Shown here in pieces: positions 26,174 through 53,206 of a stretch of DNA of 64,000 nucleotides. The position numbers and the translations under genes were made by a program. Position 1 is the stretch's first letter. Each line of letters starts with the position of its first letter. The stretch is from contig CP129477.1 in assembly GCA_030583825.1 (NCBI GenBank), positions 694,294-758,293 of the forward strand, read 5' to 3'. The notes beneath the pieces are model-generated. The model saw only the letters and a program-made list of their open reading frames with translations. It was not told the DNA's origin and did not search any database. The stretch comes from Candidatus Dojkabacteria bacterium. GTDB taxonomy: Bacteria; Patescibacteriota; Dojkabacteria; GCA-002793355.

Positions 26174-26281
26174 GAAAAATAAAAAGGCGCCGCCACACGG
26201 CGGCAATAGCTTGAAGCTACGATTTCGGATAAACCTTGTTTGAACTCATAGTGCAATTCCAGATAGGTATCACCCAACTGT
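26174..26281 (-). ncRNA. tracrRNA: tracrRNA of the type II-A CRISPR-Cas system
   Basis: A minus-strand promoter is present, with -35 TTGATA (rc of 26311-26316), a 17-nt spacer and -10 TAGAAT (rc of 26288-26293). The anti-repeat GGGUGAUACCUAUCUGGAAUUGCACUAUGAGUUCAAAC (rc of 26237-26275) is imperfectly complementary to the CRISPR repeat and has a 2-nt bulge. It is followed by the nexus-like AAGGUUUAUCCG (compare SpCas9 AAGGCUAGUCCG) and the hairpin UAGCUU-CA-AGCUA. A terminal hairpin GCCGCC-GUGU-GGCGGC is followed by UUUUUAUUUUU. Confidence 0.75.
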
Positions 26282-26329
26282 GGTACAATTCTAACAAATA
26301 AGAAGTAACTTATCAACGATCACTGTATT

Positions 26330-29300
26330 ATGGCAAAATATTTAGGTTTAGATATTGGAACAAACAGTATTGGTTGGGCAGTTACAGATGAAAATTACAA
26401 CTTGTTAAAATATAACGAAACTCCTCTTTGGGGAATACATCTATACCCAGAAGCTAGTAATGCCAGCGAAGCTCGTGGGTATCGCTCAGCTCGCCGTGGT
26501 ACTCGTCGAAAAGCCTGGCGAATAAAAATATTACAAGAACTGTTTAATGAAGAAGTAGCGCAGGTTGATCCTGCGTTTTTTAGCAGAATTAGAGACAAAG
26601 AAGTCTATTCTTTGTTCAAGGATGATAAGGAATATTATGAGAAATTTCCAACAATACATCATTTAATTCTCTATTTACAAAAAATAAATGAGAGGCCTGA
26701 TATTCGGTATGTTTACCTGATGTGTTCTTATTATATGAAGCATAGAGGGCACTTCTACTCGAGCATAGATGAAAATGCTGATATCGAAAAAATTTTAGGT
26801 CTGCAAACTATTTTTGATGAGTTTCTTGAAGCTCTCAGGCTTCTTCCTATAGAGATATCCGATGTTAATATAAAAAATGTAGAGTCTGCGTTGAAACAAG
26901 AAAACGTGAGTAACAGGAAAAAGGCCTTAAAAGATGTATTATCAACAACCGATGATGAATTTAAAATCCTACCTGAGATTATAACGCTTTTGTCTGGAGG
27001 TAAAGCGAAACTACAAACTATCTTTCAAAACGAAGATCTTAAAAGTTTGTCTGTTATGGACACAGATCCTGAAAATGAGACAATGGCGGAGTTACAAACT
27101 GTACTAGGCGAGCAATTCGATATACTTCTAAAAGCAAAACAAATTACTGATTGGATTGTTTTATGTGATATTTTGAAAGATGCAAAGAGTATAAATGAAC
27201 AAAGACTTAACCTATATGAGGAGATAAAAAGTAAGAAAGAGCTTCGTGGAGAGAAATTAACTGAACACATGAAGGAAGAGCATAAGAAGAATCGAGTTAT
27301 TCCGTACCAATTACAGTGGAAAGATTTCAAAAAGGCGCTAAACAATATACAAAAGTTTTACCCTACTCTTGATGTCGAAAAGATAGGTCAACTATTCAAA
27401 CATAGAATTCCTTATTTTGTAGGGCCTCTTAAAGAAGATCAAAAAAATCGATGGAGTTGGATTAAAAAGAAAAATGATGAAAAAATTTACCCATGGAATT
27501 TCAATGAGGTTATAAATATTGAGGAGACACACTCAGGCTTTATAGAGAAAATGACCGCAAAGTGTACTTACCTCGTGGGAGAAGATGTGCTTCCAAAAGA
27601 AAGTATGCTCCATGCAAAGTATTTAATTCTCAACCAACTAAATAACCTTAAGATTGACGGTGAAAGAATTGATAATACCCTGAAACAGGAATTATTTCAA
27701 GATTTATTTGAAAAAGAATCAGGAACAGTTTCTTTAAAGAAAATCAAAGCTTGGTTGAAAAGTAAAAACCCTGCGTATAAAGATACAGAACTAACAGGTG
27801 TAGATACTACGATAGAAGGAACACTAAAAGCATATCATAATTTTAAGCCATATCTTGATAAGCTAAAGATGGGCGAGATAGAAGAGATTATAAAACGAAT
27901 AACAATATTTGGGGAAGAAAAGCAGAATTTAAAAAGTTGGATGGAAAAAACCTTTAATCATCTTGATGAAGAAGATATAAAGAAGATTTTACGATTTTCT
28001 TATAAAAAATATGCAAGACTTTCTAGAGAGTTTTTAGAAGGTATTATGTATGATGTCGAGGAAAGAGAATTAAGCATCATCCAGGCTTTGTGGGAGACGA
28101 ACAATAACTTGATGGAGCTGCTGTCTGATAAGTATGGATACGCTCTAAAAATAGAAGAATTTAATAAGAATGCCGTTAATAAAGCTACAACTCTTAATGA
28201 AAAGCTTGATGATTTATATATCTCAAATCGTGTTAAACGCTCAATTTTCAGAACACTTGCAGTGGTTAGTGAAATTATCAAAGCTATCGGTAAACCAGAC
28301 AAGATATTTATTGAAATGGCACGAGGAGAAGAGCTGAGTAAAAAAGGTAAGAAGACAAAAAGTCGCAAGGATGAGCTAAAAGAACTGTTGAGAGGCAATA
28401 AAGACCTACTAAACGAATTAGTGGGCAAAACAGATGATCAACTTCGTGGGAAAAAGCTATACCTCTATTTCTCTCAAATGGGAAAATGCATGTATACAGG
28501 CAAAACGATATCCCTTTCTTCTCTTAGTTCCGATAATTGGGATGTTGATCATATTTATCCTCGCTCGAAAGTCAAGGATGATAGCATCCGCAATAATCTT
28601 GTACTTGTAGATAAAAATGCCAATGGAGCAAAAACAGATAATTATCCATTACTTCCTGAGATACAGAATCGAATGTCTGGTCACTGGAATTTCTTGAAAG
28701 AAAAGGAATTAATTACCAATGAGAAATATTCTCGTCTGATGCGCAAAACTCCATTTACAGAAGATGAAAAAGTTAATTTCATTAATAGGCAATTAGTTGA
28801 AACAAGGCAAAGCACCAAAGCTATTGCCCAGCTTCTTAAGGAAAAATATAACGTAGAGATTGTTTATGTGAAATCCGAATTGTCCAGTGATTTTAGATAT
28901 ACTTATGAGATTCAGAAATGCCGTGAAATAAACGATTTTCATCATGCAAAAGATGCCTATCTAAATATCGTTTGTGGCGATGTCCATAATAGAGTATTTA
29001 CAAAAAATCCCAGAAACTTTATTAAGAAAGCAAATGATAGCAATTATACGATTAATCCTAAGGTTCTTTATAAAAGGCAATGGGATGGAACGGATATACT
29101 TTCCAGAATTAGGAAGACATTGAAAAGTAATCAAATTAAATACACAGAGATGATGTACGAACGTACAGGTTCATTCTGGGGAAAGACATTAGGCTTAATT
29201 CCTAGAAAAGGAAATATGACAGAATATTCTGAAAAGTCTTATGAATTATCAACAGCATTTTTTGCACTGGTTTCGTATGGGCCAGAAAGTAATAGAAAAA

Positions 29301-29914
29301 CAAAGTTATTGCCTGTTTATAACTACAAAATAGAAGAATTTTATAACGATGCAAATAAGTATTTTAATGGAACGCATAAGATGCTGGATAAAAGCGATTT
29401 AGATAATATAAAGTTTCTTCGCAAGGTAAAACTCGGTACCGTAGTTATTAAAAAAGGGATCCGCTATAGAATTACAGGCAATACCCATATGTTGCATGCC
29501 TATCAACTTACAATGCCATATGAACAAGAGAAATATTTCAAGAAGATAATTAAGGCCTTTGATAAAGATAATCCTAGACCAGAGGTACTTGTGAAAGAAG
29601 AGAATATAAAGTTATTTGAATTATTTAAAGGTAAACTGAGAGATTCCGTATATTCAAGGTTAAGCTCTTTGAACATTCAATTGAAATGGTTTGATAATAG
29701 TAAATTCGAAAGCCTTTCAATAAAAGAGCAAGCAGAATTTCTTAAAAATTCAATTAGCATGTTTACGGCAAATGCCGCAAAAGGTAATTTAAAGATTATT
29801 GATAAAAATGCTTCCGGTAATGTCGCTAATGGCCCTATGCCAAATGATTGCGATTACATTCTTGACCAATCTGTCACTGGACTGTTTGATAAGAAATATA
29901 GAGTGAAGGTATGA
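26330..29914 (+). CDS. cas9: CRISPR-associated endonuclease Cas9 (type II-A, 1194 aa)
   Basis: The N-terminal RuvC-I motif is LGLDIGTNSIGWAV. An Arg-rich bridge helix (ARRGTRRKAWRIKILQELF), the HNH motif (DVDHIYPRSKVKDDSIRNNLVLV) and RuvC-III (INDFHHAKDAYLNIV) are all present. The stop is TGA, overlapping the cas1 start. Confidence 0.95.
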   Translation: MAKYLGLDIGTNSIGWAVTDENYNLLKYNETPLWGIHLYPEASNASEARGYRSARRGTRRKAWRIKILQELFNEEVAQVDPAFFSRIRDKEVYSLFKDDKEYYEKFPTIHHLILYLQKINERPDIRYVYLMCSYYMKHRGHFYSSIDENADIEKILGLQTIFDEFLEALRLLPIEISDVNIKNVESALKQENVSNRKKALKDVLSTTDDEFKILPEIITLLSGGKAKLQTIFQNEDLKSLSVMDTDPENETMAELQTVLGEQFDILLKAKQITDWIVLCDILKDAKSINEQRLNLYEEIKSKKELRGEKLTEHMKEEHKKNRVIPYQLQWKDFKKALNNIQKFYPTLDVEKIGQLFKHRIPYFVGPLKEDQKNRWSWIKKKNDEKIYPWNFNEVINIEETHSGFIEKMTAKCTYLVGEDVLPKESMLHAKYLILNQLNNLKIDGERIDNTLKQELFQDLFEKESGTVSLKKIKAWLKSKNPAYKDTELTGVDTTIEGTLKAYHNFKPYLDKLKMGEIEEIIKRITIFGEEKQNLKSWMEKTFNHLDEEDIKKILRFSYKKYARLSREFLEGIMYDVEERELSIIQALWETNNNLMELLSDKYGYALKIEEFNKNAVNKATTLNEKLDDLYISNRVKRSIFRTLAVVSEIIKAIGKPDKIFIEMARGEELSKKGKKTKSRKDELKELLRGNKDLLNELVGKTDDQLRGKKLYLYFSQMGKCMYTGKTISLSSLSSDNWDVDHIYPRSKVKDDSIRNNLVLVDKNANGAKTDNYPLLPEIQNRMSGHWNFLKEKELITNEKYSRLMRKTPFTEDEKVNFINRQLVETRQSTKAIAQLLKEKYNVEIVYVKSELSSDFRYTYEIQKCREINDFHHAKDAYLNIVCGDVHNRVFTKNPRNFIKKANDSNYTINPKVLYKRQWDGTDILSRIRKTLKSNQIKYTEMMYERTGSFWGKTLGLIPRKGNMTEYSEKSYELSTAFFALVSYGPESNRKTKLLPVYNYKIEEFYNDANKYFNGTHKMLDKSDLDNIKFLRKVKLGTVVIKKGIRYRITGNTHMLHAYQLTMPYEQEKYFKKIIKAFDKDNPRPEVLVKEENIKLFELFKGKLRDSVYSRLSSLNIQLKWFDNSKFESLSIKEQAEFLKNSISMFTANAAKGNLKIIDKNASGNVANGPMPNDCDYILDQSVTGLFDKKYRVKV

Positions 29915-30798
29915 GCTGGCGTACTCTTGTTGTTACAGGGCGAGCAAAACTTGATTACCAACTTGGCTACATGGTGATCCGTAAAGATACAGAACAGCAA
30001 ATCTTTCTTGATGATGTAAATGTACTTATTTTAGAAAGTACAGCAATTTCATTGACAACCTATTTATTAAAAGAACTTGTGAATAAAAAGGTAAAGGTTG
30101 TTTTCTGTGATGACTTTCATAATCCTGCAGCAGAGCTAGCACCTTTTTATAATAATAAAATGTCTTCTGCCAACATAGAGCTCCAGATTGGCTGGAAAGA
30201 AGATATAAAGAAAAAAGTGTGGGCGGAAATCATAAAACAGAAAATCATTAATCAAGCGTTTGTTTTAGCAAAAAATGAACTAGTTGAGAAATCAAAACTA
30301 CTTTTAGAGTATGTAAAAGAAGTACAACTCGGTGATAGCACAAATAGAGAAGGACATGCTGCAAAAGTATATATGAATGCTCTGTTTGGGAATTCATTTT
30401 CCCGAGGACAAGATAATGAAATCAATTCAGCATTAAATTATGGTTATACAATACTTCTCTCAGCTTTTAATCGTGAAATTGTGGCCAGTGGTTATCTCAC
30501 TCAACTCGGTATAGCGCACCATAATACATATAATTATTTTAACCTGAGTAGCGATTTTATGGAGCCTGTTCGACCATTAATAGATTTATTTGTTAAGGAT
30601 TCTGACTTTAAAGAATTTGGGACAGAGCAAAAGCACCTGACCGTAGATATTTTAAACAGAGGAGTGAGGGTACGTAATGAGAAACAATATTTATCAAATG
30701 CCATTGCCATTTATGTGAAAAGCATTATCAATGTACTAAACAGCGACAAAGTAGAAGATATTAAATTTATAAATATAATGGAGGGTGAGCAGTTATAG
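29911..30798 (+). CDS. cas1: CRISPR-associated integrase Cas1 (type II)
   Basis: The 295-aa product carries EGHAAKVYMNALFG...LNYGYTILLSAFNREIVASGYLTQLGIAHH...DFMEPVRP with conserved Cas1 catalytic E/H/D positions. There is a 4-nt overlap with cas9. Confidence 0.9.
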   Translation: MSWRTLVVTGRAKLDYQLGYMVIRKDTEQQIFLDDVNVLILESTAISLTTYLLKELVNKKVKVVFCDDFHNPAAELAPFYNNKMSSANIELQIGWKEDIKKKVWAEIIKQKIINQAFVLAKNELVEKSKLLLEYVKEVQLGDSTNREGHAAKVYMNALFGNSFSRGQDNEINSALNYGYTILLSAFNREIVASGYLTQLGIAHHNTYNYFNLSSDFMEPVRPLIDLFVKDSDFKEFGTEQKHLTVDILNRGVRVRNEKQYLSNAIAIYVKSIINVLNSDKVEDIKFINIMEGEQL

Positions 30799-31108
30799 AT
30801 TTATGAGAATTATTGTTATGTTTGATATGCCTACAGATACTCTTCAAGAAAAGAGAGCGTATAGGTATTTTCGTAAGTATTTGGTTAAAGATGGATTTTT
30901 TATGATGCAGGAAAGTATATATGTCAAAATAGCAATTAACGCCGAATCTAGTAAGAGTATACTTAAGCGTTTAGAACGGAAAAAACCAGAATATGGGCTA
31001 GTTCAGATTATGCAAGTCACAGAAAGACAATTTGAGAAAATGATTTACCTAGTTGGTAAACCAATTAAGAAGGTAATTTCTTCAGATAAAAGACTAGTTA
31101 TTGTATGA
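30785..31108 (+). CDS. cas2: CRISPR-associated endoribonuclease Cas2
   Basis: The product is about 100 aa. MRIIVMFDMPTDTLQEKRAYRYFRKYLVKDGFFMMQESIYVK matches the Cas2 N-terminal beta-strand with catalytic Asp (MYDI-like). The probable true start is the Met at 30803. Confidence 0.8.
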   Translation: MSSYRFMRIIVMFDMPTDTLQEKRAYRYFRKYLVKDGFFMMQESIYVKIAINAESSKSILKRLERKKPEYGLVQIMQVTERQFEKMIYLVGKPIKKVISSDKRLVIV

Positions 31109-31773
31109 AACTACTATTGCCCCAAATTAATAACTCTTTCGATTTCGCTCAAAATAAAGTCAACAGGCTTGTGATAGAAAATTCCAGTGAATTTGCTAGA
31201 GTTATTCAAAAATTTAAAAATCAAGTTGATTTCGGTGAAAGTTATGCATCTTTATTTGATGATATAGTAGAACAAAATTTTACGAAATTAGTTGAGATCA
31301 TTTATTCTCCGATAGAGTTTAATATAAATACTCCCTTATTATTAAATAGCTTGCATAAGAACCTATCAATGGAAACTAGTAATGAACAATCTTTCTTAAA
31401 AACGGTAGAATTAAAAAGGCACATAGTAAACTATATACAAGACCTTCTCTATAATAAAGATGCAGATTTACTTTACGATGATGATCCTGATATTTCCAAA
31501 GTATTCAAAATGTTAGGGGTTAGATACAATGATGTATACGAAACAATTGTAGAAAAACTATTTAAGTTTCTAGTCGCAAGTCAAGAACTTGGGAGTAAAG
31601 AGATATTTTTATTTGTAAATCTCAGCGACTACTTATCTTCAGAGGAAAAAACAACTTTCTATAAAACAGTTCTTGCAAAAAACATAAAGATCTTTCTTAT
31701 AGATAGAAATTTTTATGAAAGAAATAGTTTAGAAAATCTTACTCTTATTGATAAAGATTTATGCGAACTATAA
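31105..31773 (+). CDS. csn2: Csn2-like protein (type II-A signature)
   Basis: The 222-aa product sits between cas2 and the array, where type II-A csn2 is found. The C-terminal region IFLFVNLSDYLSSEEKTTFYKTVLAKNIKIFLIDRNFYE parallels the short-form Streptococcus Csn2 ([35 protein letters not shown]). No Cas4-like Cys cluster or RecB motifs are present. Confidence 0.55.
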   Translation: MKLLLPQINNSFDFAQNKVNRLVIENSSEFARVIQKFKNQVDFGESYASLFDDIVEQNFTKLVEIIYSPIEFNINTPLLLNSLHKNLSMETSNEQSFLKTVELKRHIVNYIQDLLYNKDADLLYDDDPDISKVFKMLGVRYNDVYETIVEKLFKFLVASQELGSKEIFLFVNLSDYLSSEEKTTFYKTVLAKNIKIFLIDRNFYERNSLENLTLIDKDLCEL

Positions 31774-31915
31774 TGAGTTTCTCTTGATAAATTGGGAGGA
31801 ATATGATAGATTATGTTAAGGGAAGCTCTTTGATATTAAGTTGTTTTGGTTGCTCTATTTTTCATTTGCAGGTCTAATCAGCTTGTCCTCTATTCCTGTT
31901 AGTGAGGAATTTGAG
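31774..31915 (+). promoter_or_regulatory. CRISPR leader
   Basis: A 142-bp AT-rich non-coding stretch lies between csn2 and the first repeat. It ends with ATTTGAG directly abutting repeat 1, which equals the leader-anchoring motif described for Streptococcus type II-A arrays. Confidence 0.5.
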
Positions 31916-33205
31916 GTTTGAGAATAGTGCAATTCCAAAGGGGTATCAAACTCAAAAATCTGACGCATTGGAACATCTTCTGTTTGAGAATAGTGCAATT
32001 CCAAAGGGGTATCAAACACATAATGCGTTTATTAAAATTTAATTTACGTTTGAGAATAGTGCAATTCCAAAGGGGTATCAAACCGCTACAACGAGCGACT
32101 CAAAGTGCTTGGAGTTTGAGAATAGTGCAATTCCAAAGGGGTATCAAACAGGCATTTTTACCTTTGTTCCGTCCCAGTGGTTTGAGAATAGTGCAATTCC
32201 AAAGGGGTATCAAACTTTTACCTTACAGGTGCTCTCTAACGGATAGTTTGAGAATAGTGCAATTCCAAAGGGGTATCAAACCATGGAATATTCTTGTAAA
32301 AATCCCTTGTTGTTTGAGAATAGTGCAATTCCAAAGGGGTATCAAACAGTTCGAGCTATTGTTGCTGCTCTTCTAGCGTTTGAGAATAGTGCAATTCCAA
32401 AGGGGTATCAAACCAAAAGGACGTACATAAATGCAAGGTTCGAGTTTGAGAATAGTGCAATTCCAAAGGGGTATCAAACCGGTTACATGCGCTTTATCAC
32501 CCGCTGAAGGTTTGAGAATAGTGCAATTCCAAAGGGGTATCAAACTCTGCGTGATATTTATTCCACCATTCCTTGGTTTGAGAATAGTGCAATTCCAAAG
32601 GGGTATCAAACCATCACCATCACCATTTGGTTTAATTTCTAGTTTGAGAATAGTGCAATTCCAAAGGGGTATCAAACTGCAACATCAGCTTTAAATTTAC
32701 CCTCTTTGTTTGAGAATAGTGCAATTCCAAAGGGGTATCAAACTGCAACATCAGCTTTAAATTTACCCTCTTTGTTTGAGAATAGTGCAATTCCAAAGGG
32801 GTATCAAACTCACAGATGATGCACTTATTTATGGATTTGGTTTGAGAATAGTGCAATTCCAAAGGGGTATCAAACCTTACATTGGACGCATGTTTTACGT
32901 GTATCGTTTGAGAATAGTGCAATTCCAAAGGGGTATCAAACTACAACTCTTTGCTCAAGTGGAGGAAGAAAGTTTGAGAATAGTGCAATTCCAAAGGGGT
33001 ATCAAACACCCTATAATCGTATACGGTGCTCTCTTGAGTTTGAGAATAGTGCAATTCCAAAGGGGTATCAAACACCAGAGTATCTTGTTACAAAAGGTGA
33101 ACTGTTTGAGAATAGTGCAATTCCAAAGGGGTATCAAACAATCTGTGTGTAAAGTATGTTGACCGTTCCGTTTGAGAATAGTGCAATTCCAAAGGGGTAT
33201 CAAAC
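31916..33205 (+). CRISPR. CRISPR array with 20 direct repeats (36 bp) and 19 spacers (30 bp)
   Basis: The repeat GTTTGAGAATAGTGCAATTCCAAAGGGGTATCAAAC recurs every 66 bp from 31916 to 33170. Every repeat read appears identical, including the terminal one. Spacers 12 and 13 (32678-32707 and 32744-32773) are identical (tgcaacatcagctttaaatttaccctcttt). Confidence 0.97.
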
Positions 33206-33251: not shown

Positions 33252-33695
33252 ATGCCGACAATCAAAAACCCACAACGCAATAAACAGCAAACCCTTCTTA
33301 AAAACAAGTCAGAAATCACTATAATCAACGACGTTCCTGCGGGATTTCCATCTCCTGCCAGCGATGCAATTCAACAGTCCCTCGACCTAAATCAGCTACT
33401 CATTCAGCATCCAGCAGCGACTTTCTTTGTGAAAGTGCTCGGACACTCCATGCAAAACAGTAATATTCATTCTGGTGACATATTAGTAGTGGATCGCGCG
33501 GTAACTCCGGAACATAATCACATCGCTGTCGCCGTCATTGATGGAGAATTTACAGTTAAACGCATTGTCAAAAGAGGGGGGAAGCTATTTCTTGTCCCGG
33601 AAAATGAGAATTTTCACGCAATCGAGATAAAAGATGGAATGAATGTTGAGATTTGGGGAGTTGTTACTTACGTCATCCATTCCCTCAAGCTGTAA
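33252..33695 (+). CDS. umuD: UmuD-like S24 peptidase (translesion polymerase accessory subunit)
   Basis: The product shows AGFPSPASDAIQQSLDLNQLLIQHPAATFFVKVLGHSM (Ser nucleophile) and DGEFTVKRIVKR (Lys general base), with UmuD/LexA C-domain spacing. It lacks an N-terminal HTH, so it is UmuD rather than LexA. Confidence 0.75.
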   Translation: MPTIKNPQRNKQQTLLKNKSEITIINDVPAGFPSPASDAIQQSLDLNQLLIQHPAATFFVKVLGHSMQNSNIHSGDILVVDRAVTPEHNHIAVAVIDGEFTVKRIVKRGGKLFLVPENENFHAIEIKDGMNVEIWGVVTYVIHSLKL

Positions 33696-33737
33696 AATTA
33701 AATAATTTCGGCGTTAACTGCGTATGCGCCGCATTCA

Positions 33738-33755
33738 ATGTATAATCTTATACAT
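33738..33755 (+). promoter_or_regulatory. Palindromic candidate operator overlapping a -10 element upstream of umuC
   Basis: ATGTATAAtcTTATACAT is a perfect 8/8 inverted repeat containing TATAAT (33741-33746). It lies between umuD and umuC. Confidence 0.3.
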
Positions 33756-33826
33756 CTCTCTTGGTGCTCCTTGTTGCCTTGAAATTCTCTTAATTTTCCA
33801 ACTTGATAATAATAGTAAATAAAACA

Positions 33827-35122
33827 ATGTCTAGACCAACAACACAATACGTCCTCATAGACTGCAACAACTTTTTTGTGTCCTGTGAGCGTATATTTAA
33901 CCCAAAACTATGGAACAAACCAGTCGTTGTGCTATCCAGTAATGATGGATGTATTGTCGCACGGTCAAACGAAGCAAAAGCATTGGGGATTCCCATGGGA
34001 GCACCAGTGTTTAAACATGCCGAAATGTTGGAAAAGAATAATGTGTTTCAGATGTCATCAAATTTTCCGTTGTATGCAGATATTTCACGAAGAGTGATGG
34101 AAATCTTGCACGAATTCTCCGATTCTGTAGAGGTGTATTCTGTAGACGAAGCATTTATCAAATACAAGCCTGGAACAAAAGAAAACCTTAAGCAAACCTT
34201 TCGTGAATTAAGAAAAAAGATTTATCAGTGGACAGGTATTCCTGTCTCAATAGGCATAGCACCGACTAAAACGTTGGCAAAAGTCGCGAGTGAAAAGGCA
34301 AAAAAAAGAAAAGATCTCGAAGGTGTCGCAATCTGGAGTGATTTAGGTGTCCACCAAGAAGTGCTCAAAACGGTCGAGGTGGGTGATATCTGGGGAATTG
34401 GTTGGAATCATGCCGCGCTACTAAAAAGACATGCAATATTTACTGCGTATGATTTGACCCAGCTTTCAGACAAAACCATTCGAAAACTACTCACCATCGG
34501 TGGACTGAAAACAGTTACAGAGCTCAGAGGAACCGTATGTATTGACATTGAAACAATTACTCAACCTCGAAAGGGACTGACAAGTTCGCGTAGTTTTGGG
34601 CGAGCAATAACAACGTTAGAAGAGCTTGAAGAAGCAGTTTCTCTTTTTGCAACTCGAGTAGGAACAAAGCTGTTTGAGCAAAAGTCCGTTGCACTCTATC
34701 TTTCTGTATATATTAGAACAAGCAAATATAATCCGGAGAACCGAAATATTTCAAAAGTCGCAACTGTTCGCCTAGACGAGCCGACGTTTTACATTCCGCA
34801 TATAATAACTGCCGCAAAGAAAGCATTGAAAAGTATTTATATGGACGGATATACATATAAAAAAGCAGCAGTATACTTACAGGATATTTGTCCAGCTGAT
34901 AGTGCACAGCAAAGTTTTCTAGGAGGATTTGAAGCAGACCAAATGGTGAGCAAAAAGCAGGAAGCGATTCTTTCTACTGTAGAAAAAATTAATACAAAGT
35001 GGGGGAGTCTTACAATTAAACCCTTGGCAATTGGAGAAAAACAACTTTGGAAACCAAAACAGGAAAAAGTATCACCGGCCTATACAACAAGTTGGAGTGA
35101 TTTGGTTACAATTCGGCTTTAG
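33827..35122 (+). CDS. umuC: Y-family DNA polymerase (UmuC / Pol V catalytic subunit)
   Basis: The product reads MSRPTTQYVLIDCNNFFVSCERIFNPKLWNKPVVVLSSNDGCIVARSNEAKALGIPMG, the Y-family palm with catalytic D and E, and has a little-finger C-terminus. The track ORF starts at 33803, but the Met at 33827 is more likely. Confidence 0.8.
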   Translation: MSRPTTQYVLIDCNNFFVSCERIFNPKLWNKPVVVLSSNDGCIVARSNEAKALGIPMGAPVFKHAEMLEKNNVFQMSSNFPLYADISRRVMEILHEFSDSVEVYSVDEAFIKYKPGTKENLKQTFRELRKKIYQWTGIPVSIGIAPTKTLAKVASEKAKKRKDLEGVAIWSDLGVHQEVLKTVEVGDIWGIGWNHAALLKRHAIFTAYDLTQLSDKTIRKLLTIGGLKTVTELRGTVCIDIETITQPRKGLTSSRSFGRAITTLEELEEAVSLFATRVGTKLFEQKSVALYLSVYIRTSKYNPENRNISKVATVRLDEPTFYIPHIITAAKKALKSIYMDGYTYKKAAVYLQDICPADSAQQSFLGGFEADQMVSKKQEAILSTVEKINTKWGSLTIKPLAIGEKQLWKPKQEKVSPAYTTSWSDLVTIRL

Positions 35123-37330: not shown

Positions 37331-37699
37331 CTAACTCTTTGCGGCTCTTGCCAATTTTCTATCAAGCGTGAGTAGCTTTAGTTTAGAGAGTTTTGATTTT
37401 TCAAGTAACCAAGCATCTACAAAACCAAGGCTAGTAGTACAATATCTCTCTAAAGCTTGAAAATTTAGCTTCTTATCTTCAACTTCAAATTGTTGAACAT
37501 CTAAAAAGTATTTCAGAAGTAATATTTTCTGTTTAGGGTAGTGATAAAAGGAACGTAAAACAAATATAGTTTCTGCAAATACGACAGAGGTTATGTAACA
37601 TTTATGTTGTCTTACAAAGTCTTCTGCTTTTTCTGTAAGTACTTCATCTTCAGGGACAAGAAGCCTAATGATTATATTTGTGTCTATAAGTGCTACCAT
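37331..37699 (-). CDS. PIN-domain toxin (VapC-like)
   Basis: MVALIDTNIIIRLL shows the N-terminal Asp of the PIN fold. The 122-aa gene abuts the antitoxin gene. Confidence 0.6.
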   Translation of the reverse strand: MVALIDTNIIIRLLVPEDEVLTEKAEDFVRQHKCYITSVVFAETIFVLRSFYHYPKQKILLLKYFLDVQQFEVEDKKLNFQALERYCTTSLGFVDAWLLEKSKLSKLKLLTLDRKLARAAKS

Positions 37700-37948
37700 T
37701 TATATTTCTCTCATATTTTCGTAAGCCTTTTTACGGATTGTGTTGAAAGATAGTCCTTTCCCAGAAACTGGAGGTTTCCCGAGTATTCCAATGACATCTT
37801 TAAGAGATCGGCGTGGTTTTATTAAGATGACTCCATTTTTCTCGGAAATCTCTACCTGGCTGAATGGCTGCAAAGAAGGAAATTTCTTTCTGATTGCTTT
37901 TGGAATTGTCACTTGGAATTTGGGACTTACTGATGAAGTTATATTTTC
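37700..37948 (-). CDS. AbrB/SpoVT-family antitoxin
   Basis: MENITSSVSPKFQVTIPKAIRKKFPSLQ is the swapped-hairpin DNA-binding motif. The track ORF extends to 37990, but that N-terminal extension contains the palindrome ATGTAATacaATTACAT plus TATAAT, which looks like promoter and operator rather than coding sequence. Confidence 0.55.
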   Translation of the reverse strand, partial: ENITSSVSPKFQVTIPKAIRKKFPSLQPFSQVEISEKNGVILIKPRRSLKDVIGILGKPPVSGKGLSFNTIRKKAYENMREI

Positions 37949-38205
37949 CATACGTAGCGTTTGTTTATGTAATTGTATTACATTATACATAAGTTTTACG
38001 TTTAGATAAAGTATTACTTTTTGCCTTTGGAATATTATAAACTAGGAAAAATGAATGAAAAGTTAAGGGTGACTATCCAAAATGCTGGAGAAATGAAGAG
38101 TAATAGTATGGAAACTATTAAGTTGAAACATGATGTGACAGGGCACGCAGTAAAAAGCTCGTTCAATCAATAGTTGGATTTCTAATAACTCTGAATTCTG
38201 TGAAT

Positions 38206-40388: not shown

Positions 40389-42170
40389 TTATCGTCGGCC
40401 AAAGAATGCTTCGCGGCTGAGCAAATCAGGATCGGGAATATCCATTGGGCTGAGTATTGGATCGCTTTTAGCAATTGCAGTACCGGTTTGTGCGCAAAGA
40501 TAGCGATAATCAGCTTGCCCTCCTACTTTTACGCGCAATCGGGTAAAGTAATGTGCTTTCTTAGGGTCTGTATGCATTACAAATGGTGTTGCATGTCCCA
40601 GTGGAAGGAGGTTTATAAGAAATGAGTAGTCAGTAATATTTGGGCAAGCCTCATGGACAGTCTCAAGAAAGTTATACACTTCTTGATAATATTGTTCCAT
40701 GTCTTCTCTGAATTGATCACGAACTTCGGCTAATTCTGGTATATGAGTAAGGTGGTAAGGCAATATATATCCGCGTGAAAGGATCTGGTGTGCCTGGTGA
40801 TAGTCCATGGCTTTTCCATACAAAGTCGGCAATGGAGTAAATCTTCCCATTGCACGATGTCGGTTAAAGTCTCGATTAATGCCGATAGGTGCATAATATA
40901 TAACCATATGTTCGGAAGTCACAGCCTGCTGCGGAAGCTGTTCATGGTCTGTATGTCCATTGAAGATAATGCTTCCTATTGCGCGTTTTTGGTCTATACT
41001 CAACGTTGTCACCCAGCTAAGGGTTTGAGATAGTGAAGCATTCGGATGTAGTGTCAGAATATACTGTGCAATCATTTTTTCACTTGTTGTATATTCTCCT
41101 CCGACAACTTTTACACCAAGCTTACGTTCTCCTCTAAAATCTGTCGCAATGCTTACTGCTTGGAAAAAATCAGTTTCAGTGCGAAGAAAATCTTCCAGCA
41201 CCGTTAAATTTTCATGAAATTGAGTATCGGCTTCGGTATGTTTTACCAACGATGGCGCTTCTGCGACATAACCGAGTTTCTCTTCAGTTAACTCGTCGGG
41301 TGCCAAAAGCCGCTGCAATTGTTCTCCTAATCGTACGTCTGAGTCAAGCTCGGATGCTTTTAACTCTGCAATCACAATAGACCAAGTTCTTGCTGTCGCT
41401 TTTTTTGACATTCCTGTTCGTTGTCCGAATAAAAAGAAGAATCGTGCGCAATCCATAGCTCTCATTTGTAGAGTTTTGTCTTCTTTTGTTCCCTGAGGAC
41501 TATAGTGTAATGCCAATGCATCAGACGCTCGGTCATAATTCCTATGAAACATATCGAGAGCTATTTCTCCGAGCCTTTGGTATTCTGTATTGATTGTATC
41601 CCACTGCTCTGGAGTAAACTGTTCTCTGGCAAGAGAATTTTGTAACGGAACAAGAGGCTTTTTCCCAAAGCCTATTTGATACCGGGTAGATTTTTCTTGT
41701 CCGGCATGAACCTGTGTCATGTGAAATAGTCGCATTGCTTGAACCATCGAGATATTTTCGAGATCTACGTACACTTCTGCTAAGTCAGCAATAGAGTTTT
41801 CTCCATAATTTATTGCGAATTTTTCTAATCTTCCGGCACTATCAACATTTTCATGTACTACTTGTCTCATAATATACAGAATATTTCCTGGCTCTCGAGA
41901 GTGACGAGCAGCTGTCCATGCCCGTACCGAGGCTGTTCTCCCTGCATTTCTTTCTGTCGTAGTACTTACAGTAACGCCTGTCTCTTTGTCGCGTAATTGG
42001 AATAAGTTGACTGGTACTTCGCCATTCTCTGCGAGATATCCTTCCCATTCATAGTCTGCCTCATCGAGGGAAATATCTGGAGAAAGGGGAACTTCAAGCG
42101 GGGTTAATTCTTGTACATTTGGGGATTTTCCGTTTTGGTGTGAGCCACCTTTTTTCTCTGTTGAAGACAT
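40389..42170 (-). CDS. Hypothetical protein, possibly tandem ThyX-like (FAD-dependent thymidylate synthase fold)
   Basis: The first half shows SMVQAMRLFHMTQVHAGQEKSTRYQ and CARFFFLFGQRTGMS. These resemble the ThyX segments [23 protein letters not shown] and TRFFWTVNARSLMNFL, although RHR is replaced by HMT. The second half contains NRHRAMGRF. The 593-aa length suggests two domains. The assignment is tentative. Confidence 0.3.
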   Translation of the reverse strand: MSSTEKKGGSHQNGKSPNVQELTPLEVPLSPDISLDEADYEWEGYLAENGEVPVNLFQLRDKETGVTVSTTTERNAGRTASVRAWTAARHSREPGNILYIMRQVVHENVDSAGRLEKFAINYGENSIADLAEVYVDLENISMVQAMRLFHMTQVHAGQEKSTRYQIGFGKKPLVPLQNSLAREQFTPEQWDTINTEYQRLGEIALDMFHRNYDRASDALALHYSPQGTKEDKTLQMRAMDCARFFFLFGQRTGMSKKATARTWSIVIAELKASELDSDVRLGEQLQRLLAPDELTEEKLGYVAEAPSLVKHTEADTQFHENLTVLEDFLRTETDFFQAVSIATDFRGERKLGVKVVGGEYTTSEKMIAQYILTLHPNASLSQTLSWVTTLSIDQKRAIGSIIFNGHTDHEQLPQQAVTSEHMVIYYAPIGINRDFNRHRAMGRFTPLPTLYGKAMDYHQAHQILSRGYILPYHLTHIPELAEVRDQFREDMEQYYQEVYNFLETVHEACPNITDYSFLINLLPLGHATPFVMHTDPKKAHYFTRLRVKVGGQADYRYLCAQTGTAIAKSDPILSPMDIPDPDLLSREAFFGRR

Positions 42171-43007: not shown

Positions 43008-44252
43008 ATGACTAGAAACGAAGCAAGAACTATAGATTCACGGTATAATAGAGGTATGAAAATAGATCTGGGTGACGAGAAAAGTACCAAACCTATTAAA
43101 AAAGGAGGAATACCTGTCCGAATTCTGACTGTACTTATCCTTTCGGTGACGCTTGTTATTATTGGCACAGTAATTGGCATCTATACAACGCAAAAACCTG
43201 AGCAATCCGTAAATGTAACCCCAACTCCTACGCCAACACAAGCTGAAGCAGAACCAAGTGGAACACCAACGCCATCTCCAACGTCTCTGCCTCGTCGAGT
43301 TGCGTATATTACCGATAATGACCTTTGGACAATTTCACTTGATGGAACACATAAAGAGAAAATTGCTGCGGTAACATTGCCTACACAAGGAGTCGTAACT
43401 TCACTCTTTTGGAAAAATGCCTCAACAGTAAGCTATGCCGCGTGTACGCCTCAGAAAAAATGCACAGTGTATGATGTTTTGATCATACAAAAGCAAATAA
43501 ATCCCGTCGCTACCGATATTTCTGGAGAAAAACTCTTTGGAGCATGGGCAAATAATACGCAGCTACTACTGGGCATACAAAATCAAGGAACGTCTTCCGG
43601 CAGTGTAAATGACTCAATTTCTATAAGGAATGGCAGTAGTCCCGTAGCAACACTAAAAGGCGTATCAGCAAGTGGGGTATTTCTCGATGGCTATAAAGAC
43701 GATATCTTTCGTATAAGTAAGCTTCTTAATGGGTCGCAAGTGGTGGCACACGATGTTCGCGCCGGAAACAGTGGGATTGATTATAATGACAATACTTTTG
43801 TCATAGAAAATGGAAGAATCATTGCAACAGCAAAGTCCTCAAGTGCGGCATTACTGAGTCAGTCTAAGCTTGCTGTCATTTACCGCGACACGTTGGAAGT
43901 TAAAGACATCACTAAAAATGAAAGTACTTCTTATCAGATAGTATTTGGTCTTGATGAAACACTATTTCAACTGCGTGCAGCAGCTGATGGTAATCGTGTA
44001 TCGTTCTGGACACCGGCAAAAACGAAGAGTATTACGTTTATGTACGATATCTCCAGAAAAGAGCGAACATTACTGCATGAGCAATTTGTTCCTGAATATG
44101 GCTGGGTGACAGACTCTCTTATTTTAGGGCGATCAACACTTGCACAAAGTAGTGATTATCGTGTTAATACTGGACTTGCCTTGTTGAATGTAACAACCAA
44201 AGAGCTAAAAGGCTTAGTGAACGAGGCCGTCAGTATTTACTCTGTTGAATAA
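43008..44252 (+). CDS. Hypothetical secreted/membrane-anchored protein
   Basis: It has an N-terminal transmembrane helix and a Pro/Thr-rich linker (TPTPTPTQAEAEPSGTPTPSPTS) followed by a beta-rich domain. The real start may be the Met at 43056. Confidence 0.4.
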   Translation: MTRNEARTIDSRYNRGMKIDLGDEKSTKPIKKGGIPVRILTVLILSVTLVIIGTVIGIYTTQKPEQSVNVTPTPTPTQAEAEPSGTPTPSPTSLPRRVAYITDNDLWTISLDGTHKEKIAAVTLPTQGVVTSLFWKNASTVSYAACTPQKKCTVYDVLIIQKQINPVATDISGEKLFGAWANNTQLLLGIQNQGTSSGSVNDSISIRNGSSPVATLKGVSASGVFLDGYKDDIFRISKLLNGSQVVAHDVRAGNSGIDYNDNTFVIENGRIIATAKSSSAALLSQSKLAVIYRDTLEVKDITKNESTSYQIVFGLDETLFQLRAAADGNRVSFWTPAKTKSITFMYDISRKERTLLHEQFVPEYGWVTDSLILGRSTLAQSSDYRVNTGLALLNVTTKELKGLVNEAVSIYSVE

Positions 44253-45752
44253 CTTTTCTCGCCAGTAATAAGGAGTAGTAAATGCTCCTGCTGGAATTAT
44301 TTCAACTCCATATTTGGAAAGTTGCTCGTTGAGTGCCAGTCGTGCAGATTCGGTTTCTTTGTCGTATACCTCTTGGAATGTGAGCTTGCTTGTTTTGTAA
44401 AAGCCTTCTCCGTAGTGAGTATCGAGTTCGCGTTCAAGTAACCCGGCGTCTTTTGATAAGTAGATTTCCTCCCAGGCCTCGGGAGCAATCTTATCTAAAG
44501 AAAGTATGGTGAATACTGGAAGGGAATAGGTCGTAGTGGTGGGATATGTTTGGTATCGGCTCATAATCTTTAGTGTGAAGTACTGAGTGAGCCCTTCTTC
44601 AAAAAAGCGATCTAAATAGTGATTCTGCGTGTCACTTGTGTAGTGTAGATACTCGTGGACTAACGTTGAGACAGTAAGGTATCCGTCTCTGCCGGCAAGA
44701 AACTTTACACTAATCTTATCTGGTGGGAAAAAATGTCCGACTTCCTGTGCAGGAGCCTTTATTCGCGCCTGAATTTCCTCTTTATCTGAAAGAAGCTTCT
44801 GTTTATGAGCTTGCCACTCCTTTAGTGCATTTTCTGCTTCGGTAATCAGTCGCGAGGAATAGCGATTTCGTTTCATCTGCGCAATCCATGTTGTTAGTTC
44901 ACGAATCGTTTTATCCGCCTCGGTAATATATTGTTCCTGCTGTTTTAGAAGCGATGTCAATTGCGTGTTGATATAGTCAATATACTCATCTTCTCGAAGA
45001 ATTTGTGCCTGCGGAAAACTCTTTGTAGGAAAATTATCGAACTCACAGGTGATGAGCTTTTGAGCTAGCGGCGCAGCGAGAGGTTGTAACATTTCTGGAG
45101 GCGTTTTTAAAAGAAAGAGAGTGTCTTGGAATACGAAGCTTCCGTATGTCGTAGGAAGTGTCAAGTAGTTAAAGTCTACTGTAGGAGGAGCAATGGATTG
45201 CCTAATAAATGAGCTGTAGCTTTTTTCTTTTAGCGAGATATCCGCGATCTTTTTAAATGCATCTGATTCTGAAAAGGAAATTGCCGGGCAAGCCTCTTGG
45301 GAGAGTAGAAATTCTCTTGACACTTCTACTTCTGTACGAATCTGCGGGCGTATACTGTCAGGAAGGTATTCTTGCAAAGGAGAAAGTTCGTTATATACGA
45401 GAAGGAGGGTGATAAAGAATGAAAAGTGAATAGCAAGTACCATTGCGCTGAGTGTAGAGAATACAAACGAGCTAAATACCCTTAAAAACTGTTTTGATTT
45501 TGCTTTCTGCCCATTCAGGTAGGAATCGGCTAATACCCAGCTTAAAAGGGCAATAAAAAGCGTTAGCGCGATAAATCCAGGGATTCCAAGAAGTGCGGTA
45601 AATGAACGGTAAAAAGCGAGTACCATTCCATCTGAAGGGATGTAAGGAAGTCTGTACAAAGCGACATAGGTACAAAGAAGTGTTCCCGCAGTAATTAGCC
45701 CGATAGGAATAAAGATTGTTTGACCGTACGTCCAACGTACATTCTTTTTCAT
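44214..45752 (-). CDS. Hypothetical polytopic membrane protein with an HExxH motif
   Basis: It has about four N-terminal transmembrane helices. The C-terminal soluble domain contains VSTLVHEYLHYTSD, a possible zinc-metallopeptidase motif. Confidence 0.4.
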   Translation of the reverse strand: MKKNVRWTYGQTIFIPIGLITAGTLLCTYVALYRLPYIPSDGMVLAFYRSFTALLGIPGFIALTLFIALLSWVLADSYLNGQKAKSKQFLRVFSSFVFSTLSAMVLAIHFSFFITLLLVYNELSPLQEYLPDSIRPQIRTEVEVSREFLLSQEACPAISFSESDAFKKIADISLKEKSYSSFIRQSIAPPTVDFNYLTLPTTYGSFVFQDTLFLLKTPPEMLQPLAAPLAQKLITCEFDNFPTKSFPQAQILREDEYIDYINTQLTSLLKQQEQYITEADKTIRELTTWIAQMKRNRYSSRLITEAENALKEWQAHKQKLLSDKEEIQARIKAPAQEVGHFFPPDKISVKFLAGRDGYLTVSTLVHEYLHYTSDTQNHYLDRFFEEGLTQYFTLKIMSRYQTYPTTTTYSLPVFTILSLDKIAPEAWEEIYLSKDAGLLERELDTHYGEGFYKTSKLTFQEVYDKETESARLALNEQLSKYGVEIIPAGAFTTPYYWREKLFNRVNTDGLVH

Positions 45753-45991
45753 ACTGGATATTTTACAGCAATATTCCCTTAAACAAAGTAGTATATTTCA
45801 CGGCGTATGAAACATATACGGTTTGTGTGGTTAAAACTGTGCTTAAATGGGTCAACTATATACGTTCAGTGAGATACTCTAAACATACTTGAGTGGTGAA
45901 TAAGGAAAACTATACTATGTTCTTTGGAGAGATAGAAACTTATAAATACTCTTCTTAAGGCGGTTTTTACTACGTTCTACGGGACTGATTA

Positions 45992-46011
45992 ATATACCTC
46001 TACGGGTATAT
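45992..46011. promoter_or_regulatory. Second degenerate copy of the ATATACCC-N4-GGGTATAT palindrome
   Basis: ATATACCTCTACGGGTATAT matches 16/20 positions of the site at 57610-57629. It lies in the 400-bp intergenic region between divergent genes (45752 minus and 46161 plus). Confidence 0.4.
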
Positions 46012-46160
46012 GCTGAAAAGAAAAGTATCCTTTCTTTACTCTCTCTAAGATAGTGGGTGCGATAGGAATGAATAGACTATGTGTATAGTCTTTATTGTTC
46101 TCCTTTACTTATTTTGAGGCCTCAAGTACTATTCTTATTAACTAAGTTATCTTTTTTATT

Positions 46161-46568
46161 ATGAAAAAAGATTTTCCGTACCTTTCAGTTGTCAGTTATG
46201 GAGCAGGGCATTGGTTCACAGTACTTGCAATTTCATTTTTGTTATTCTCATTTCGTCAAAATGAACCTATTTTCTTTGAATCGCTTATTTCACTTACCCT
46301 CGTCGCAGTCACAATCTTTTTTGGGTTTATTTTCTTAAGGCGATATCGTCCAATTTCTTCGAAAGAAGCGTTGCTAACTGGTTTTGTATGGATGCTTGTA
46401 AATCTCGCCCTAGACCAGCTTTTGTTTATGTGGGGGCCAATGAAAATGAATTTGATCGCGTATGTTAAAGACATTGGAGTAACCTATCTCATGGTTCCAG
46501 CAATTATTTGGGCAATGGAGTACTACCACGAGAGTGTAGTCAGAAAAGAGAAGTCAGAGAAAAAGTAG
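46161..46568 (+). CDS. Small membrane protein
   Basis: The 135-aa product has about four hydrophobic helices. Confidence 0.4.
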   Translation: MKKDFPYLSVVSYGAGHWFTVLAISFLLFSFRQNEPIFFESLISLTLVAVTIFFGFIFLRRYRPISSKEALLTGFVWMLVNLALDQLLFMWGPMKMNLIAYVKDIGVTYLMVPAIIWAMEYYHESVVRKEKSEKK

Positions 46569-46708
46569 AAATATATCCCTCACAGCTTTAAGAGAGTAGC
46601 ATGTGTTGTTTTTTTATATTTGGGGGTTAAAACAGGCAGAATTTGTAACGGGAAGGAATAGATTGGTTACAAACCCTGCCTGGGAACGGGGGAGGTGTGG
46701 CATGTTAG

Positions 46709-47194
46709 TCACTGATCTGTCTGTGGTGGACGAGAGGATTCTCGCTTACGACGGTATTCGACTAATACAAACGCGACTGCTTCAATTATATTACTTGCTT
46801 TTGCAGTTGCGGTTACACCGTTGAATAGGATTGAAGCGTTGTATCCGTCAAGTTTTCTGCTGATATGTATCTCAATCGCGATTCTGTAGATACCAGAGAT
46901 ATTGACGAAATTCAACATTCCAACAGTCATGGCAGACCAATGGGGAGATTCAGCAATAATGCCTTGCATTTGCTGCAAGCAATTCGCAACTGCTGTTTCA
47001 ATATAGTGCCCATTGCCGACAAATTCGTTCTCTCCGGATTTCAGAAAAAACGAAATTGGTGAGTCTTCATTTCCAGTCGCTTTTGCCAGACCGGATAACT
47101 CACCTATGAAAAGATTCGAGATTGCAATTTGTAGCTCTGTTGCCACTGCCTTTCTCCTTTGTATAGGATCTTCTGATAGAGAATTATACCACAA
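46709..47194 (-). CDS. Hypothetical protein
   Basis: This is a 161-aa ORF with no recognised motif. Confidence 0.35.
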   Translation of the reverse strand: MWYNSLSEDPIQRRKAVATELQIAISNLFIGELSGLAKATGNEDSPISFFLKSGENEFVGNGHYIETAVANCLQQMQGIIAESPHWSAMTVGMLNFVNISGIYRIAIEIHISRKLDGYNASILFNGVTATAKASNIIEAVAFVLVEYRRKRESSRPPQTDQ

Positions 47195-47243
47195 ATGACC
47201 TATAATATCAATTTGCCATGCAGCTAAATATAACTATTACAGG

Positions 47244-48962: not shown

Positions 48963-49719
48963 GGTTCAGTATAGCGCAGTAGTTGATTTTCCGAAAGTGT
49001 TATACTATGGTATGGATGTATCTCAGCATGTTGTGGATATTTCAGAGCAGCGCTTCGGTCGCGCTCCTGACCAGGCAATTATGACAAAGCCTGTCGGTGC
49101 ACGGACATTCGTAACTGTCACTATTGAATCACGACGATACCTTTTTGTTTTTTGTACAAAAGAGCAGTGTGAGACAGATATTTTCTTTATGGAAACAATG
49201 AAAAAGCAAGGGATTGTTTCCCCTGATATTATCCATTCTGGACTACTTTTAGACGCTGGTTGGTACATAATTCCCGATATTCCAGTCCTTTCTCTTACGG
49301 AAAGAGAATCGCGTCGAGAGGAAATGACTCAGCTTCTCAAAAAACTGTATACCATTCCACTCAAAGGGGCGGGCTTTATTCACGGGACACATGAATTTTA
49401 CACAGTATCTCATGATTCGGTAGCAGCGTTTTTACGGGATTTTTCTTTTCAGCTAAGTAAAGAGTCTTTGTGGACACAAAAACTTGAAGAAACAGCCAAA
49501 AGACTGATGCCTGTATTGGTTCATGGAAATTTAGGTGCAGATGTATGGCATATATATCGCGATAAAGTATGTTTGTTATACCCAGGAAGTGTTGTTGCTT
49601 TATGCCCTGAATTTGATTACGCTGCATATTTATCTGTCCATAACGATACAAAAGATCTATTTTCAAGTATACCGATGAATGAAGAAGTCGTAAGCTTCTT
49701 TAGGGAAATGGGAGTCTAG
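48961..49719 (+). CDS. Hypothetical protein, possibly a kinase-like (APH/protein-kinase fold) pseudoenzyme
   Basis: VLVHGNLGADVWHIY resembles the HGDLHPGN catalytic loop with Asp replaced by Asn. The call is weak. Confidence 0.3.
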   Translation: MVQYSAVVDFPKVLYYGMDVSQHVVDISEQRFGRAPDQAIMTKPVGARTFVTVTIESRRYLFVFCTKEQCETDIFFMETMKKQGIVSPDIIHSGLLLDAGWYIIPDIPVLSLTERESRREEMTQLLKKLYTIPLKGAGFIHGTHEFYTVSHDSVAAFLRDFSFQLSKESLWTQKLEETAKRLMPVLVHGNLGADVWHIYRDKVCLLYPGSVVALCPEFDYAAYLSVHNDTKDLFSSIPMNEEVVSFFREMGV

Positions 49720-49729
49720 CAACTGTTAT

Positions 49730-50908: not shown

Positions 50909-50944
50909 TCCGAATTATATCATCCCATAGTGGGAGAAATTACG

Positions 50945-52207: not shown

Positions 52208-52369
52208 GTAAATGCTGGTTAATTAATTTGCTTCACACTGTGCGGTTTCGCTTGTTTATTCCCACCTTAAGGCTCTAAAGTAGTGAACTATCTATTCAAA
52301 GTTTCTCTTAAGGGGAAGTTCCGCAAAATCACAAAATTGCAGTATTGTATCAGAAGAAATATGACTTTT

Positions 52370-53203: not shown

Positions 53204-53206
53204 ATT

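Follow-up and report, generated by a model that had tools for sequence, protein, structure and literature searches.

Type II-A systems comprising cas9, cas1, cas2 and csn2 have already been reported in human-associated Saccharibacteria of the candidate phyla radiation (CPR) (PMC10746230, PMC10031880). For Dojkabacteria, the literature records CRISPR arrays as well as Cas12a systems (PMC6509639, PMC10076291), the latter being noted in PMC6509639. Among Cas9 proteins of solved structure, the closest by sequence to the one described here is FrCas9 of the II-A system of Faecalibaculum rodentium (9JWK/9JWN, PMC12926199), the single-guide RNA (sgRNA) of which is printed in the same paper. The present analysis concerns a type II-A CRISPR-Cas locus in a 64,000-nucleotide stretch of Candidatus Dojkabacteria DNA (assembly GCA_030583825.1, contig CP129477.1, positions 694,294 to 758,293), the whole of which is termed the window. 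The locus spans window positions 26176-33205 and consists of a trans-activating CRISPR RNA (tracrRNA) on the minus strand, followed on the plus strand by cas9-cas1-cas2-csn2, a leader and an array. With high confidence, it is an adaptive immune locus of type II-A that is complete and lies on the chromosome in a Dojkabacteria (CPR/Patescibacteria) genome. An earlier reading of the letters without database searches (the sequence-only reading) had named these seven components, and each was located as follows.

26176-26281 (ends approximate), minus strand: predicted tracrRNA with anti-repeat, bulge, nexus, small hairpin and terminator
26288-26316, minus strand: promoter-like site of the tracrRNA (TTGATA, 17 nt, extended -10 TG-TAGAAT)
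26330-29914, plus strand: cas9, 1194 aa; TIGR01865 and five Pfam Cas9 domains
29911-30798, plus strand: cas1, 295 aa; type II Cas1, TIGR03639
30785-31108, plus strand: cas2, 107 aa, GTG start; TIGR01573, PF09827
31105-31773, plus strand: csn2, 222 aa, short form, signature of subtype II-A; TIGR01866, PF09711
31774-31915, plus strand: leader, 142 bp, with a promoter-like site, a conserved block and an ATTTGAG end
31916-33205, plus strand: CRISPR array, 20 repeats of 36 nt and 19 spacers of 30 nt (18 distinct)

The locus resembles the SpCas9 system of S. pyogenes in operon order, in the divergent tracrRNA upstream of cas9, in its 36-nt repeats and 30-nt spacers, in the catalytic residues, bridge helix and fold of Cas9, and in the lower-stem, bulge, upper-stem and nexus plan of the guide duplex, at a Cas9 identity of ∼24-34%. 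The guide scaffold of FrCas9 is also alike: its repeat starts with GTTTGAG and its tracrRNA reads GAGTTCAAAT.AGG...ATCCGAAC, as compared to GAGTTCAAACAAGGTTTATCCGAAATCG in the window. However, FrCas9 has 1372 aa as compared to 1194 aa, with large gaps in the recognition (REC) region (residues 238-286 of the window protein, for example, correspond to 264-395 of the chain), and its host is a non-CPR bacterium, whereas that of the window is a CPR bacterium. The nearest relatives form a compact clade (P0002-P0006 and P0030, e.g. the Oscillospiraceae metagenome-assembled genome (MAG) Th196P3bin70, WRMH01000010.1), which shares the gene order, a 222-aa Csn2, a Cas9 of 1172-1248 aa, a near-identical repeat family (GTTTGAGAG.AGTGTA.TT.CAAAGGG), the ATTTGAG leader end and a homologous tracrRNA. 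Identity to the window proteins is 52-56% for Cas9 and 38-43% for Csn2. In mechanism and architecture the locus shows no departure from a textbook II-A system. The system is ordinary; its host is unusual.

The four cas open reading frames (ORFs) are intact, without frameshift or stop codon across 5.4 kb, and neighbouring genes overlap by 4-14 nt; the cas genes therefore look translationally coupled. All four proteins passed the curated type II/II-A models at full length, which is the profile search that the sequence-only reading had proposed. Cas9 scored 755.7 bits against TIGR01865 (cut-off 100). Cas1 scored 294.3 bits against TIGR03639, the type II Cas1 model, over model positions 1-278 of 278, and 251 bits against the S. 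thermophilus Cas1 chain 6qxf_I, while Cas2 scored 77.5 bits against TIGR01573 and also matched PF09827. The assignment to subtype II-A, which had been made from csn2, is borne out by a score of Csn2 against the TIGR01866 equivalog of 147.9 bits (cut-off 35, i.e. ∼4 times the cut-off) over positions 1-222 of 222, and by 76.9 bits against PF09711. Csn2 also matches the solved Csn2 structures 3qhq, 6qxf, 3s5u and 3toc at E=1e-8 to 6e-7, and neither Cas4 nor any further ORF was present within the operon. Every defining feature of subtype II-A that is open to an in silico test was found.

The sequence-only reading had also described the RuvC and HNH sites of Cas9 as intact, and the mapping to SpCas9 by BLASTP and MAFFT agrees with it. 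RuvC residues D8, E662, H872 and D875 correspond to D10, E762, H983 and D986 of SpCas9, respectively, and HNH residues D740/H741 and N765 to D839/H840 and N863. These residues are invariant or nearly so (≥90%) in an alignment of 42 homologues, and the arginines of the arginine-rich bridge helix are kept. With the SpCas9 reference used for the mapping of residues and domains, the catalytic positions fall at their published numbers, and its aligned ranges agree with an independent PDB search.

The predicted tracrRNA has its anti-repeat at 26238-26277 (minus strand). On the plus strand these positions read as a copy of the repeat core, and the complementary RNA is therefore minus-strand and runs divergently from cas9. 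On the 3' side of the anti-repeat follow GAGUUCAAAC, the nexus AAGGUUUAUCCG, a hairpin UAGCU/AGCUA and the terminator, made up of a GC-rich hairpin (26205-26188) and a U-run. The promoter-like site is called from the consensus alone, with 10 of the 12 positions matched and the TG of the extended -10 box present. In relatives, boxes of the TTGAC and TATAnT types stand at the equivalent place upstream of the tracrRNA. The free energy of the repeat:anti-repeat duplex is far more negative (−40.3 kcal mol−1) than that of 500 shuffles (−12.3 ± 3.1, minimum −24.3), and co-folding gave an SpCas9-like geometry with a lower stem of 6-7 bp (GUUUGA:UCAAAC), a bulge and an upper stem of 14 bp. The predicted single-guide form of the repeat and tracrRNA of the locus is GUUUGAGAAUAGUGCAAUUCC-GAAA-GGAAUUGCACUAUGAGUUCAAACAAGGUUUAUCCGAAAUCGUAGCUUCAAGCUAUUGCCGCCGUGUGGCGGCGCCUUUUU.

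Rfam model RF02348 gave a full-length match at 26180-26296 on the minus strand, with 19.3 bits (E ∼1), below the gathering score; the tracrRNA call therefore rests on complementarity and comparison. A homologous tracrRNA module adjoins cas9 in seven related loci (L002, L003, L004, L005, L044, L045 and L047). The anti-repeats follow the substitutions of their own repeats, as evident from the window, where AATAGTGCAATTCC pairs with GGAATTGCACTAT, and from L002, where AGTAGTGTAGTTCC pairs with GGAACTACACTAC. Across the related loci, compensatory changes occur in 7 of the 20 predicted pairs of the nexus and terminator stems. The divergent tracrRNA named by the sequence-only reading is thus well supported as a prediction, with an anti-repeat, a promoter-like site, a terminator, a stable duplex and a conserved module.

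Two variations of the module were recorded among the relatives. The nexus (window 26225-26236, minus strand) has the short form AAGGUUUAUCCG in L002, L044 and the window itself. In L003, L004 and L005 it is lengthened by the insertion of a stem of ∼5-8 bp, in which compensatory changes occur. In L044 (JGI contig Ga0082212_10027127, Cas9 54% identical) the tracrRNA lies at ∼2670-2790 on the plus strand, upstream of cas9 and on its strand, unlike in the window and the other relatives, where the two are divergent.

The array starts with the first repeat at 31916 and proceeds with a period of 66 nt to the last repeat at 33170. The repeat, GTTTGAGAATAGTGCAATTCCAAAGGGGTATCAAAC, is identical in 20 of 20 copies, the terminal one included, and all 19 spacers are exactly 30 nt long, which speaks against decay of the array. 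The sequence-only reading had these counts right. However, the spacers are not all different: spacer 12 (32678-32707) and its neighbour spacer 13 (32744-32773) have the same sequence, which leaves 18 unique spacers. The pair could stem from a duplication (through slippage between repeats or through recombination), from double acquisition or from an artefact of long-read assembly. Spacers 5 (32216-32245) and 17 (33008-33037) have the 10-mer GGTGCTCTCT in common, which may be due to chance or to related targets.

The leader contains a promoter-like site at 31784-31812 and the conserved block ATTTGCAGGTCTAATCAGCTTGTCCTC, and its ATTTGAG end (31909-31915) abuts repeat 1 (GTTTGAG...). Alignment displayed the conserved block and an extended -10 box in the window leader and in four related leaders, and the ATTTGAG/GTTT junction is also present in L002, L003 and L005. 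This junction is the end of Group 1 II-A leaders and is reported to be essential for adaptation in S. thermophilus CRISPR1, whereas the S. pyogenes leader ends in an ACGAG-type sequence (PMC5382924). Judged by its sequence, the window leader is of the Group 1 II-A type in the scheme of Van Orden et al. 2017 (PMC5382924).

Gene content, family membership, catalytic residues, complementarity and conservation of the RNAs, the host label and the affinity of the flanks are direct observations. The sequence-only reading had called the locus apparently functional; by homology to the II-A systems of S. pyogenes and S. thermophilus, it would be expressed, processed and competent in interference and adaptation. 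Transcription of the array would start from the leader, and the divergent tracrRNA would pair with each repeat through the lower stem GUUUGA:UCAAAC, the bulge and the 14-bp upper stem. The crRNA would be matured by host RNase III and Cas9, and the HNH and RuvC sites of Cas9 would then cut DNA matching the spacer next to a protospacer-adjacent motif (PAM). Cas1-Cas2-Csn2, with Cas9, would add 30-bp spacers at the ATTTGAG/repeat-1 junction. Nothing in the sequence appears to speak against such activity.

The gene content had suggested a Patescibacteria/CPR-like host to the sequence-only reading, and this has proved correct. An identical Cas9 is deposited at NCBI as WKZ29811.1 ('MAG: type II CRISPR RNA-guided endonuclease Cas9'), from Candidatus Dojkabacteria, on a 1,090,595-bp contig. 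The gene upstream of the locus encodes an S51-peptidase with named homologues in Dojkabacteria, Woesebacteria, Doudnabacteria and the Patescibacteria group, and its stop codon lies only a few bases from the terminator of the tracrRNA on the opposite strand. The window also contains housekeeping genes for ThrRS, iPGM, GreA, DnaB and MnmA. Many of its ORFs have no family match, which is common in CPR genomes.

The affinities of the cas genes point elsewhere. Among 5.8 billion proteins, none apart from itself is more than ∼56% identical to the window Cas9. The nearest are P0002-P0006 (1191-1248 aa, 52-56% identity), P0004 being from an Oscillospiraceae MAG, followed by proteins of ∼1360 aa with 36-41% identity, the named members of which are Ruminococcus and other Clostridia. 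No CPR genome was present among the 36 GTDB-representative loci recovered. A rough neighbour-joining tree places the window Cas9 at the base of the compact clade. In comparisons with four clade loci, Cas1, Cas2 and Csn2 each show 38-65% identity to the corresponding protein, and hence nothing points to a separate origin of any gene. The flanks of the compact-clade loci carry CdaA, YbbR, CarD and IspD, which are typical Firmicutes genes, whereas the window locus sits among CPR genes. Since the only named member of the clade is an Oscillospiraceae MAG and the larger sister groups are Clostridia, this Dojkabacteria lineage has most probably gained the whole module by horizontal transfer, the simplest reading being a donor of Clostridia type without closely related sampled genomes. 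The direction of the transfer and its date are matters of inference. No Saccharibacteria protein was found among the 120 best Cas9 matches, so the window system looks like an acquisition separate from the II-A systems of Saccharibacteria.

Several observations weigh against an active system that was gained in this manner. The relatives, at just 53-56% identity, are too distant to point to a donor or a date of transfer. The GC content of the cas operon is lower than that of the flanks (0.327 as compared to 0.405); however, the cas operons of the relatives are likewise AT-richer than their own flanks, and GC content is therefore weak evidence for transfer. No syntenic empty site was found, the closest long S51-peptidase contigs (P0125 and P0126, 62-63% identity) being without synteny. 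As regards activity, the -10 box of the window leader is TAGATT, weaker than the TATAAT of the relatives. In the repeat:anti-repeat duplex of the window, repeat nt 23-25 lie in a 3x3 internal loop, close to where RNase III would be expected to cut by comparison with S. pyogenes. The loop is an exception among the compared relatives, since the duplexes of L002, L003 and L005 are fully paired at these positions. An RNase III signature was not found within the 64-kb window.

The spacers also gave no targets. For the whole array, no protospacer was found in phages (50,697 records) or plasmids (72,556), the only matches in INPHARED being chance 37-nt matches to Vibrio phages (E=0.1) that straddle a repeat/spacer junction. 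IMG/VR contained no match to the 3'-terminal 22-mers of spacers 1, 3, 4, 5, 7, 9, 12/13 and 17. Self-targets were absent from the window (≤6 mismatches) and from the fetched related loci (≤5 mismatches). The proposal of the sequence-only reading to predict the PAM from spacer matches thus came to nothing: with no protospacer, no PAM can be derived and nothing indicates that targeting took place recently. JGI metagenomes did not contain the exact repeat either, and no sister arrays are therefore available for a comparison of spacer turnover.

Several of these observations are the substance of the rival explanation that survives best, namely that the locus is structurally intact and immunologically idle, being a fairly recent horizontal acquisition or a relic that is unexpressed, misprocessed or no longer acquiring spacers. 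The lack of phage, plasmid and viral-contig matches to the tested spacers, the departure of the leader -10 box from the conserved TATAAT, the loop at the expected RNase III site and the unconfirmed RNase III (none seen in the 64-kb window) all fit such a state, and the duplicated spacer fits recombination or slippage rather than fresh acquisition. However, 20 perfect repeats up to the terminal one and spacers of uniform 30-nt length are at odds with it, as are 5.4 kb of cas genes free of frameshift and stop codon in a reduced genome of 1.09 Mb, since such genomes usually shed DNA that is of no use. The motifs of catalysis, of the bridge helix and of adaptation are intact as well, and missing protospacers are to be expected because CPR phages are poorly sampled. 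An idle locus is hence considered improbable, though it is the only alternative of any weight, and a complete adaptive immune locus is retained as the preferred interpretation.

A second rival explanation, in which assembly or binning has wrongly joined a Clostridia locus to Dojkabacteria DNA, is very unlikely. The named Cas9 relatives are all Clostridia or other non-CPR organisms and the cas operon lies below its flanks in GC content, as such a chimera would have it. However, both junctions are base-identical in a separate k-mer assembly: in the Logan assembly of run DRR779146 both flanks of the locus are 100% identical to the window, the contig covers 10 kb upstream and 8 kb downstream of the locus, and an identical cas2 gene call is present. 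The two assemblies may share reads and are hence only partly independent. Furthermore, the NCBI record is a single contig of 1.09 Mb, the immediate upstream gene has Patescibacteria homologues, the terminator of the tracrRNA reaches to within a few bases of the stop codon of that gene, and in the sampled non-CPR genomes no Cas9 exceeds 56% identity.

In the Logan contig (DRR779146_7640, L001 15586-15621) the 20-repeat array is collapsed to a single repeat. This is an artefact of short-read assembly and not a biological variant.

The sequence-only reading had placed the window Cas9 nearer to St1Cas9 and SaCas9 than to SpCas9. This holds for length, as St1Cas9 and SaCas9 have 1121 and 1053 aa, respectively, near the 1194 aa of the window protein; it does not hold for sequence and fold. 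In the PDB search the best match was FrCas9 9JWK (E=1.8e-160, 539 bits), followed by SpCas9 chains at ∼1e-105, whereas SaCas9 was matched at E ∼1e-25 and in the central part alone (residues 405-878). The AlphaFold2 model of the protein, with a mean predicted local distance difference test score (pLDDT) of 81.5, aligns end to end in Foldseek with SpCas9-type structures at template modelling (TM) scores of 0.65-0.79. Both PF16592 (Cas9_REC) and PF16595 (Cas9_PI) were matched. The REC architecture of SaCas9 and St1Cas9 is unlike that of the window Cas9, which keeps an SpCas9-type REC2 and PAM-interacting (PI) fold.

REC2 is retained, with 127 residues as compared to 128 in SpCas9. The 174 aa by which the protein is shorter than SpCas9 are lost mainly from REC1 (∼63) and RuvC-III (∼57), and further from PI (∼19) and RuvC-I (∼14), with a small loss in REC3. 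The window Cas9 is thus a trimmed enzyme of the SpCas9/FrCas9 type, and its likeness to St1Cas9 and SaCas9 is limited to length. The PAM-reading segment of SpCas9 around R1333/R1335 has no aligned counterpart in the window Cas9 or in its clade; recognition of NGG is therefore not expected, and the PAM is expected to differ from that of SpCas9.

The short Cas9, superficially like those of II-C systems or St1Cas9, is also all that would favour another type II subtype (II-C, II-B) or a Cas9-only remnant mislabelled as II-A, an explanation of negligible probability that is refuted by the full-length match of Csn2 to the TIGR01866 equivalog and is further opposed by the absence of Cas4, the type II kind of Cas1 and the II-A type of repeat, leader and tracrRNA.

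The finding is solid and not surprising. A II-A system in CPR bacteria is not new in itself, and this Cas9 was already deposited and automatically annotated; the new part is modest, namely that a Dojkabacteria chromosome holds a divergent representative of a compact, uncharacterised clade of SpCas9-like enzymes, probably as a result of transfer between phyla. CRISPR-Cas is rare in CPR bacteria. Intact systems in these organisms provide a handle on their phages, as spacers link hosts to viruses, and also inform on the exchange of genes between CPR cells and their companion bacteria. The window Cas9, from a clade ∼170 aa shorter than SpCas9 in which the SpCas9 domain plan and an SpCas9-like guide scaffold are kept, could be of modest practical interest as a compact nuclease with a different PAM.

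The fuller proposition, that an ultra-small CPR bacterium (Dojkabacteria, 1.09-Mb genome) took over an entire II-A module from a lineage of Clostridia type and maintains it in an active state, is regarded as doubtful. If it were true, the 1194-aa Cas9 would represent a naturally minimised SpCas9 architecture, in which REC2 is kept and REC1 and RuvC-III are trimmed; with the SpCas9 PAM-reading loop absent, its PAM would be previously undescribed. The transfer could then mark a physical host-episymbiont association between this Dojkabacteria lineage and Clostridia.

Further genes were recorded on the 3' side of the array. Large ORFs of 360-572 aa without a Pfam match at E≤0.001 run within window 43008-54289 (43008-44252, 44214-45752, 47244-48962, 49730-50908, 50945-52207 and 53207-54289). 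A 593-aa ORF at 40389-42170 on the minus strand carries a ThyX (Thy1) domain in residues 360-571, its N-terminal ∼350 aa being without family match. A PIN-domain toxin gene at 37331-37699 adjoins a gene for a MazE/AbrB-type antitoxin at 37700-37990, on the minus strand. Directly 3' of the array, at 33252-35122 on the plus strand, lie a umuD-like and a umuC-like gene, for an S24 peptidase and for a Y-family polymerase with IMS, IMS_C and DUF4113 domains, respectively.

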